Positions 10,763 to 11,794 of a stretch of DNA of 64,000 nt are shown in pieces. The notes under the pieces were generated by a model. It had not been told where the DNA came from. It saw only the letters and a list, made by a program, of their open reading frames with translations, and did no database searches. Source of the DNA: Giardia intestinalis. Lineage: Eukaryota. The DNA lies in assembly GCA_000002435.2 (NCBI GenBank), contig CM018793.1; one strand, given 5' to 3'. The translations under genes were made by a program, and so were the position numbers. Positions within the stretch are counted from its first letter, which is position 1. Each line of letters opens with the position of its first letter.

Positions 10763-11794
10763 TTAGCGCTCCATAATCTCCTTGAACCTCCCAAAGGTTA
10801 GAGGCTCAGCATTGAAGAACTTCTTCTTCCTTGCCCACGCAGAGAGACGATCGAAGAAAGCCTCAGACGATATCTGCTTGTCCCCAATGGTAAAGCTGTA
10901 ACGACGATCATGATACTCATCAATATCGAACCAGGCGTCTGTGATCGCAAACTGACGCGTAACAGCAGCTGCCTTTATCAAACAGTACTGGCCACCGCTC
11001 CATATGGTTCCCACATGACCCGGCTCTATCGCGACAACTGGGTTGTAAATGCCCTTATGCTCGAGGAGGAACTCGTTCGTCTGCCTGATCGTGTCAAGCG
11101 CATCGACCTCGCACAGACGATGAGGATCATCCGAGGCCCTGTCCTTGATGTGGTCCTCACAGACAGCCGGGTCGATAGCGAAGCGCACATGGAAGGCCGG
11201 AAGGATGCCTGCGCGGAGCATGTAGTGGTCGATCAGGTAGTGGAGGTACTGGCCTTGCTCCTTCGTGATGTAGCCGTCACTCATCTTGAAGAGGATGAAC
11301 GCGCTAGTAGACGGCAGCCAGCGGTCGAAGATGATGAAGTCGTACTGCTGATACTCTTCGGCAAAACGGCAATGAAGAAGCTGCTTCCCCAGTGCATGGA
11401 CCACCTGCTCCTGGAACTGGAAAGCAAGCTCCCTGGGGTTCTTGTAGTACTCCTCGAGGGTGATGCCTCCGTTCTGTCCAAAGTGGTTGTCTGCCACGGC
11501 CTCCTCGATGATGGTAGCTTCGAAGCCTTGGTCGATCAGGTACTTCTTGAGATGCTTGCAGAAGGTGGACTTGCCTGCGCCGATGGGACCGTCAACAACG
11601 ATGATGCGAGGATCAATGACAACAGGCGGCACAACTCTCGAACTGAAATCGCTGAGCTTCCATACGAGGTTATCGTCCATGTTGATCCCGATGTCAACTG
11701 ACTCCAGAAAGTCTTCGACTGGCCAGTGTGATGATTTACTATCGATGAGGCCTGGCTCAGCTGGCTGGTTCTGGGGCTCGTAGTACTGGCTCAT
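10763..11794 (-). CDS. P-loop deoxynucleoside kinase-like protein (dNK / herpes-TK family), copy A. Trimmed to the ATG within 'GGAAAATAAAATGAGC'; the ORF track began at a GTG.
   Basis: 'IVVDGPIGAGKSTF' Walker A of the DGPxGxGKT type. 'IIFDRWLPSTSAF' resembles the TK/dNK 'FDRH/ERS' site. Convergent with polB. Very high GC3. Confidence 0.7.
   Translation of the reverse strand: MSQYYEPQNQPAEPGLIDSKSSHWPVEDFLESVDIGINMDDNLVWKLSDFSSRVVPPVVIDPRIIVVDGPIGAGKSTFCKHLKKYLIDQGFEATIIEEAVADNHFGQNGGITLEEYYKNPRELAFQFQEQVVHALGKQLLHCRFAEEYQQYDFIIFDRWLPSTSAFILFKMSDGYITKEQGQYLHYLIDHYMLRAGILPAFHVRFAIDPAVCEDHIKDRASDDPHRLCEVDALDTIRQTNEFLLEHKGIYNPVVAIEPGHVGTIWSGGQYCLIKAAAVTRQFAITDAWFDIDEYHDRRYSFTIGDKQISSEAFFDRLSAWARKKKFFNAEPLTFGRFKEIMER

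Follow-up and report, generated by a model that had tools for sequence, protein, structure and literature searches.

Two deoxynucleoside kinase genes paired with protein-primed DNA polymerases in Giardia intestinalis: a probable chromosomal remnant of a Polinton-like element

The two kinase genes and their polymerase partners

The window analysed here is a stretch of 64,000 nucleotides from the Giardia intestinalis WB assembly (GCA_000002435.2, contig CM018793.1), part of a 4.0 Mb chromosome, and its features of interest are two deoxynucleoside kinase (dNK) genes, K1 and K2. Each kinase gene abuts the 3′ end of a gene that encodes a family-B DNA polymerase of the protein-primed type (polB1 or polB2) within a tandem unit of about 6.5 kb, and the features of the locus are collected in Table 1. 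K1 and K2 are probably core genes of a family of linear, protein-primed elements that are Polinton-like and tied to Giardia, and of which the window would hold a chromosomal remnant. The kinases are 47% identical to each other, the two polymerase genes share 89% DNA identity, and an AT-rich initiator-like sequence lies immediately 5′ of the ATG of both kinases. Since K2 and polB1 match WB records exactly, a non-duodenalis Giardia was ruled out as the source of the window.

An earlier note on this DNA had called a dNK gene at both places, and the call was borne out. Both genes are exact open reading frames (ORFs), both exceed the gathering score of 27 for the Pfam family dNK (PF01712; K1, 58 bits, E 1.4e-15; K2, 41.9 bits, E 1.3e-10), and both records in the G. 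intestinalis WB annotation read "Deoxynucleoside kinase". The same note had every unit pairing a polymerase with a kinase, which is correct for the two real polymerase–kinase units and incorrect for the third, a stub that carries no kinase.

The motifs DGPIGAGKS and FDRWLPS, to which the note had also drawn attention, were found in K1 and K2 and are invariant or nearly so among the 14 family members. In the HMMER alignment, residues E105, Y124, F134, and Q135 of K1 align with E52, Y70, F80, and Q81 of Drosophila dNK, which, together with R105 of that enzyme, we take to have substrate-site roles in its structure. All 14 family members share E105, Y124, F134-Q135, the P-loop GPIGAGKS, D164-R165-W166, and the lid-region residues R226, R233, and E236. 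The DRW motif stands where Drosophila dNK has ERS.

An AlphaFold2 model of K1 was built from the 14-member family alignment. Its core was predicted with a predicted local distance difference test score (pLDDT) of 80–93, a region of about 60 aa at the N-terminus was disordered (pLDDT <50), and a C-terminal alpha/beta extension of about 90 aa was less confident (pLDDT 50–80). In a Foldseek search against the PDB, the best matches were all deoxynucleoside kinases (8PUU, 1OE0/1J90, 2OCP, and 2JAS), with target TM-scores of 0.64–0.76; they comprised the Giardia deoxyadenosine kinase (dAK; 8PUU, 18% identity), Drosophila dNK (20–22% identity), human dGK and dCK, and Mycoplasma dAK. On the sequence and the model, K1 and K2 appear to be non-TK1-type deoxynucleoside kinases that are apparently catalytically competent. 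They resemble the known non-TK1 enzymes (Drosophila dNK; human dCK, dGK, and TK2; bacterial dAK/dGK; Giardia dAK) in the P-loop fold, the catalytic Glu, the Tyr, the Phe-Gln pair, the ERS-like Arg, and the Arg-rich lid, whereas they differ from the solved dNKs in their low identity of 18–22%, in N- and C-terminal extensions of their own, and in the replacement of ERS by DRW.

These differences leave room for another role of the same fold, namely a dNMP (thymidylate-type) kinase, a kinase of modified nucleosides or ribonucleosides, or a noncatalytic polymerase partner acting through the two terminal extensions. The best PHROG match of the kinase is annotated as thymidylate kinase (E 2.7e-14), K1 has a weaker Thymidylate_kin match in Pfam, no function is assigned to the conserved extensions, of which the C-terminal one is modelled with the limited confidence given above, and the family evolves fast, as the divergence between K1 and K2 illustrates. 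The Thymidylate_kin match of K1 reaches only 22.8 bits, below the threshold, compared with 58 bits for the dNK profile, however, and no TK1 family is among the Pfam matches of the kinases. Moreover, the family shows no variation in the residues with which Drosophila dNK binds deoxyribose and base, and the structural neighbours are overwhelmingly dNKs. A role other than that of a dNK is therefore unlikely.

The recognised salvage kinases of Giardia are different genes. The literature counts three dNKs, comprising a TK and two non-TK1 enzymes, GL50803_17451 (dAK) and GL50803_4558 (dNK2), and states that the enzyme that phosphorylates deoxycytidine and deoxyguanosine is still unknown (PMC11662666). 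The two non-TK1 enzymes are 30–34% identical to bacterial dAKs, the Giardia dAK has terminal extensions that serve tetramerisation, and dNK2 is 38% identical to dAK (PMC11662666). Neither K1 nor K2 is included in the published counts. The structural alignment of K1 with the Giardia dAK gave 18% identity, the profile of the K family reached 8PUU at E 0.25 only, and GL50803_17451 is annotated on scaffold CH991767. Judged by sequence, K1 and K2 are neither these host salvage dNKs nor recent paralogues of them, dNK2 being set apart only through its published identity to dAK. The K family shares superfamily, organism, and presumably pathway with dAK and dNK2, whereas the latter are different, bacterial-like genes at other loci.

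Table 1. Features of the kinase–polymerase locus, in window coordinates (EL20, a linear element described in the next section)
Feature	Coordinates	Strand	Remarks
GL50803_3666, 809 aa	1776..4205	+	N-terminal ~200 aa homologous to EL20 244/247-aa protein
GL50803_16686, 958-aa coiled-coil protein	4214..7090	-	Homologue of EL20 terminal 1015/1022-aa gene
polB1, intact protein-primed family-B polymerase	7160..10756	+	Identical to XP_001707488/KAE8305704; Pfam DNA_pol_B_2 (PF03175) 128 bits
K1, deoxynucleoside kinase, 343 aa	10763-11794	-	Exact ATG-to-stop ORF; identical to XP_001707489.1/KAE8305705.1
GL50803_26442, basic 84-aa ORF	11868..12122	+	Unit 1; divergent pair with K1
GL50803_60433, 198 aa	12127..12723	-	Unit 1; 66% identity to unit-2 paralogue
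Ankyrin-repeat protein, 279 aa	12840..13679	-	Between units 1 and 2, unit 1 only; Pfam Ank_2 E 4e-61
Junction repeat	13803..14161		Precedes truncated polB copies; second copy 19910-20231, 83% identity
polB2, 5′-truncated polymerase copy	14160..17229	+	polB1 homology begins at polB1 nt 7677; first ~517 nt missing
K2, deoxynucleoside kinase, 353 aa	17232-18293	-	Exact ATG-to-stop ORF; identical to XP_001707493.2/KAE8305708.1 = GL50803_32674
GL50803_1499, small basic 83-aa ORF	18366..18617	+	Unit 2
202-aa paralogue of 198-aa protein	18622..19230	-	Unit 2; same 202-aa gene called in L001-L004
Third-unit stub	19910..20444	+	Junction repeat plus ~30 codons of polB; no kinase

Relatives on linear elements and in other Giardia lineages

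The closest relative of the kinases outside Giardia chromosomes was found on a linear element of about 20 kb, EL20, which was recovered from human-gut metagenomes in contigs of up to 19.9 kb (the 19,920-nt contig k141_64424 of ENA ERZ27287779, here L134 and L136; also L135, L010, and L011). The first 140 nt of EL20 are the perfect reverse complement of positions 19669–19808 of the same contig, and the first 245 nt of the contig from a second sample match the opposite end (19669–19913) in reverse at 96%. EL20 therefore has terminal inverted repeats (TIRs). The element is apparently complete and has 15 genes, including a kinase (P0012) of 271–272 aa that is 36–42% identical to the Giardia kinases.

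The gene content that EL20 shares with the window extends beyond the kinase. It includes the protein-primed polymerase (54% identity to polB1), a 1022-aa homologue of the 958-aa gene, and a 247-aa protein that is homologous to the N-terminal part of the 809-aa protein. The 958-aa protein GL50803_16686 was matched by blastp in two segments, with E 6.5e-109 (34%, 722 aa) and E 1.6e-57 (45%, 209 aa). For GL50803_3666, tblastn against EL20 gave E 4.6e-16, and a profile of four Giardia orthologues matched the 247-aa protein at E 1e-26. The convergent pairing of the 958-aa and 809-aa genes in the window is the same as that of their EL20 counterparts, and the EL20 kinase forms a divergent pair with a 108-aa ORF in the position of the small ORF of the window. 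In the search with the small-ORF profile, this 108-aa protein was the best match, at a weak E of only 0.08.

Polintons (Mavericks) and Polinton-like viruses are elements of 15–40 kb that have TIRs, a protein-primed polB, an A32-type ATPase, jelly-roll capsid proteins, and often an rve integrase. EL20 is similar to them in its TIRs, its length of about 20 kb, its protein-primed polymerase, an A32-like ATPase, a model-based penton-like protein, and a weakly rve-like protein. Its 315-aa protein matched Pfam Pox_A32 at 26.5 bits against a gathering score of 22.8, its 336-aa protein gave a sub-threshold rve match (E 0.0018), and its 507-aa protein gave penton-like fold matches from an AlphaFold2 model built with three homologues (pLDDT 45), which should be taken as a lead, not as proof. 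Neither a major capsid protein nor a protease was recognised in EL20, and PDB sequence searches with the integrase-like protein and the ATPase were uninformative. Neither a deoxynucleoside kinase nor the 958-aa coiled-coil gene is known to belong to the genes that Polintons usually carry.

Two further observations concern EL20 itself. By eye, the segment VNRFCRSLRR of its 336-aa protein (L136, 15182–16192, minus strand) resembles the ERFNRTLK region of integrases, with Asn in place of the catalytic Glu, in an alignment that is uncertain. A second EL20-like lineage is represented by an 18.9 kb contig that carries a polB (P0109) and a protein (P0112) 46% identical to the 507-aa protein.

A more distant element, EL27, was found on a contig of 27,655 nt (L141, ENA ERZ15610595), of which the first 17.7 kb were examined. 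Its polB is 39–40% identical and its kinase 31–34% identical to their counterparts, with one small gene between them. The EL27 kinase cluster includes ESU40760.1 on contig AHHH01000177.1 (GCA_000498735.1, L142) of the cultured assemblage-B isolate GS_b, which shares 77–81% DNA identity with L141. No recognisable domains were found in EL27 genes other than polB and the dNK, and an IMG/VR scan with one EL27 protein returned no match. EL27 contigs are consistently 25–27.6 kb long across many samples. On another contig, L137, the polymerase shows 63% identity, and the 958-aa homologue, polB, small ORF, and kinase occur in a different order.

Among other Giardia lineages, the gene order of 809-aa gene, 958-aa gene, polB, kinase, small ORF, and ~200-aa ORF recurs on the contigs L007, L008, L012, and L139. 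In assemblage E (P15), the accessions of polB, kinase, small ORF, and 198-aa protein follow one another on a single contig, and the flanks as well as the gene order are the same in these four contigs and P15. WB short-read contigs end just past the kinase, within the 3′ end of polB. In all sampled Giardia lineages, a protein-primed polB is linked to the kinase; the position of the kinase is conserved, and wherever it is syntenic in a relative, the polymerase accompanies it, so that the syntenic kinase without a polymerase by which the earlier note would have recognised a plain host gene was not encountered. The note's main proposal, that the kinase belongs to a polymerase-bearing element, accordingly gains support from the occurrence of one kinase family next to a protein-primed polB on EL20, on EL27, and in all sampled Giardia lineages.

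The kinases of Giardia chromosomes and of EL20 share a common ancestry. A profile search of 1.84 billion representatives at E<1e-30 retrieved the Giardia family and the EL20 kinase only, and scans of IMG/VR and JGI metagenomes with the kinase profile returned distant dNKs (~22–42% identity over part of the protein, many on metagenome-assembled genomes of giant viruses) and no close relative. In a neighbor-joining (NJ) tree with 100 bootstraps, the Giardia chromosomal kinases were grouped with a support of 100, Giardia plus EL20 with 99, and the K1-type sequences (WB, P15, L007) with 100; the K1-type was sister to all K2-type sequences with 78. In contrast to the cellular dNKs, the K family is thus a separate clade limited to Giardia loci and EL20, without close cellular relatives.

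The kinase genes are under purifying selection. The ratio of nonsynonymous to synonymous substitution rates (dN/dS) was 0.14 for K1 against its L007 orthologue, 0.31–0.48 for K2 against three orthologues, and 0.12–0.35 for polB. These values indicate that the kinases are kept by selection, K2 despite the truncation of its own polymerase.

Between WB and L007, an assemblage-E-like contig, synonymous divergence (dS) forms a mosaic across window positions 4214–13679. Low values were obtained for polB (0.08), the small ORF (0.11), and the 198-aa gene (0.02), whereas dS reaches 0.70 in K1, which lies between them, 0.34 in the ankyrin gene, and 1.13 in the 958-aa gene. The 0.02 of the 198-aa gene cannot be explained by codon bias; the mosaic may stem from gene conversion, from exchange between lineages, or from old alleles of K1.

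The synteny of the locus across Giardia lineages, the purifying selection on the kinases, and an annotation that simply reads "Deoxynucleoside kinase" would also be expected if K1 and K2 were the host's own salvage enzymes, beside which a polymerase-bearing element was inserted by chance, as the earlier note had offered for an alternative. We regard this as highly improbable, since the recognised host dNKs are GL50803_17451 and GL50803_4558, with dAK so distant from K1, since the kinase is linked to a protein-primed polymerase in three further, differently arranged contexts (EL20, EL27, and L137), and since the kinase of EL20 branches as the sister of the Giardia clade.

A second alternative reverses the direction of transfer: the whole block of 809-aa gene, 958-aa gene, kinase, and small ORF would be ancestral diplomonad DNA, from which linear elements took their genes. 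The Giardia genes are fixed, selected, and without element boundaries, and viruses often gain host genes of nucleotide metabolism, all of which agrees with such a capture. At least four genes are shared, however, and two gene pairs are kept, the convergent 958-aa/809-aa pair and, by position, the divergent small ORF/kinase pair; consequently, endogenisation of one block fits better than several captures. Furthermore, the block includes a protein-primed polymerase, known only from selfish elements, and no cellular homologues of the family were found elsewhere in the 1.84 billion representatives. Capture from the host is therefore quite unlikely, and an origin of the kinases on an element is preferred over it, over the chance insertion, and over a non-dNK role, each of these three being less likely.

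Neighbouring genes and repeats

All diagnostic motifs are readable in the translation of polB1, namely Exo I–III, DxxSLYPS, KxxxNSxYG, and YxDTDS. The frame of polB2 is broken in this assembly by at least eight single-base deletions relative to polB1 at 15280–15470, which sit beside and within a stretch where polB2 is otherwise the same as polB1. In the 2007 gene model of polB2 (XP_001707491.1, 980 aa), the frame is uninterrupted across this region. Because the older model reads through and the flanking stretch is identical to polB1, some of the frame breaks may be assembly errors, perhaps residual long-read errors in a repeat beyond the reach of short-read polishing.

The small basic ORF GL50803_26442 is 87% identical to its unit-2 copy and 77–99% identical to the copies on L007, L008, L012, and L139; the L137 copy aligns with the same family. 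Its dN/dS is 0.05–0.4. The small ORFs (83–84 aa) have a strongly basic C-terminus, RAGLVRTRKRxIPRNRWK, always form a divergent pair with the kinase, and are, with polB, among the best-conserved parts of the unit across Giardia lineages. Orthologues of the 198-aa protein GL50803_60433 come after the small ORF in other Giardia loci, and a profile comparison found no homologue of this protein among the EL20 or EL27 proteins. The ankyrin gene contains five 93-nt repeat periods; it is present in L007 too, whereas L008, L012, and L139 lack it behind their single units.

The G+C content at third codon positions (GC3) is 0.94 in polB1 and 0.88–0.93 in polB2, compared with 0.49–0.79 in other window genes. 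This bias is shared by K2 (0.88) and the small ORFs (0.88–0.92), but not by K1 (0.69). The extreme GC3 of the polymerase genes results in very long spurious ORFs in other frames, such as those at 7094–10375 (minus strand, 1093 aa) and 7708–10062 (plus strand, 784 aa).

After the third-unit stub, window positions 20000–24300 are GC-rich (0.59–0.63) and without convincing genes. This segment is possibly decayed element DNA; its comparison with the EL20 proteins of contigs L010 and L135 gave nothing significant, the best match being the 507-aa protein at E 0.16.

A chromosomal remnant and its possible role

The locus in the window is not demonstrably a replicon, although the earlier note had described it as one. 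No inverted repeats of at least 40 nt were found within window positions 1–30000, and the EL20 TIR had no match in the window. Searches of the window by tblastn and blastp with the EL20 genes from L010 and L135, among them those for the ATPase and the penton-like protein of 507 aa, found no ATPase or penton-like homologue; the 201-, 326-, 336-, and 508-aa genes of EL20 were not part of these searches. Pfam searches of the larger ORFs at 1776–7090 and 24298–33898 returned only unrelated or ordinary cellular domains, with no recognised protease or capsid gene. In addition, the flanks are fixed and one of the two polB copies is truncated. Unlike Polintons, the window combines a protein-primed polB with accessory genes only, at a fixed locus and without TIRs. 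Since no termini or packaging genes were detected, the position is conserved, and the genes are under purifying selection, the Giardia locus is best read as a fixed, rearranged chromosomal remnant that is partly decayed and partly domesticated. The remnant would comprise the 809-aa gene, the 958-aa gene, polB, the kinase, the small basic ORF, and the ~200-aa ORF, part of this set being tandemly duplicated.

Several points weigh against an origin of K1 and K2 on a Polinton-like element. The window has neither inverted repeats nor detectable homologues of the ATPase, penton-like, and integrase-like proteins of EL20, the 336-aa gene not having been among the queries; consequently, that transfer went from the element to the host is inferred from the protein-primed polymerase, selfish by nature, and is not proven. 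The kinase tree was computed by NJ only and contains neither dAK nor dNK2 of the host. That EL20 is viral is drawn from one Pfam match just above threshold, a weak rve match, and a low-confidence fold. Finally, GL50803_32674 is absent from an encystation proteome list that has the host dAK.

If the kinases act as their sequences predict, they would transfer phosphate from ATP onto deoxynucleosides, which would provide more dNMP and then more deoxynucleoside triphosphate (dNTP) for the polymerase of the element in a host that has no ribonucleotide reductase. The chromosomal copies may now be kept because they serve the cell, or polB1 in trans; K2 is intact beside a truncated polymerase. A link between the carriage of a kinase and the missing ribonucleotide reductase of Giardia, as the earlier note had proposed it, is plausible: in such a host, an element would gain from a salvage kinase of its own, and the recurrence of the kinase on each recovered lineage is consistent with this. 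The salvage kinases of large DNA viruses (herpesvirus TK, the TK1-type TK of poxviruses, and giant-virus dNKs) follow the same logic, in which a kinase borne by the element secures dNTPs. The K family differs from these in that it is not TK1-type and not near the giant-virus dNKs, distant homologues (27–40% identity over part of the protein) being found on many contigs of giant-virus metagenome-assembled genomes; its carriers are small (about 20–27 kb) and protein-primed, and here it is a selected chromosomal gene.

A further-reaching scenario would have Giardia hosting, or having recently hosted, active Polinton-like DNA viruses (EL20 and EL27), each with a dNK as an adaptation to a host without ribonucleotide reductase, and K1 and K2 as domesticated viral kinases in essential salvage, possibly as the deoxycytidine/deoxyguanosine kinase and hence in the activation of nucleoside-analogue drugs. 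We put this forward tentatively and consider it rather doubtful in its entirety.

The annotation of the kinases was already known, as was the place of the Giardia polymerase among Polinton-type polymerases (Yutin et al., 2015; PMC4642659). Beyond the polymerase in this one tree of protein-primed DNA polymerases and statements of a generic kind, no DNA virus or Polinton-like element of Giardia was found described in the searchable literature. The polB–kinase module, its omission from the counts of Giardia salvage enzymes, and the elements EL20 and EL27 appear to be new, as no description of them was found in the searchable literature.

De novo synthesis of deoxynucleotides is missing in Giardia, as in very few other organisms, which makes its dNKs essential and drug targets. 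K1 and K2 add two further intact, selected, predicted kinases, which are ready for direct cloning and assay. The presence of a kinase on each recovered polB-bearing lineage would clearly exemplify a small DNA element that carries the single metabolic step which its host has no means of circumventing.

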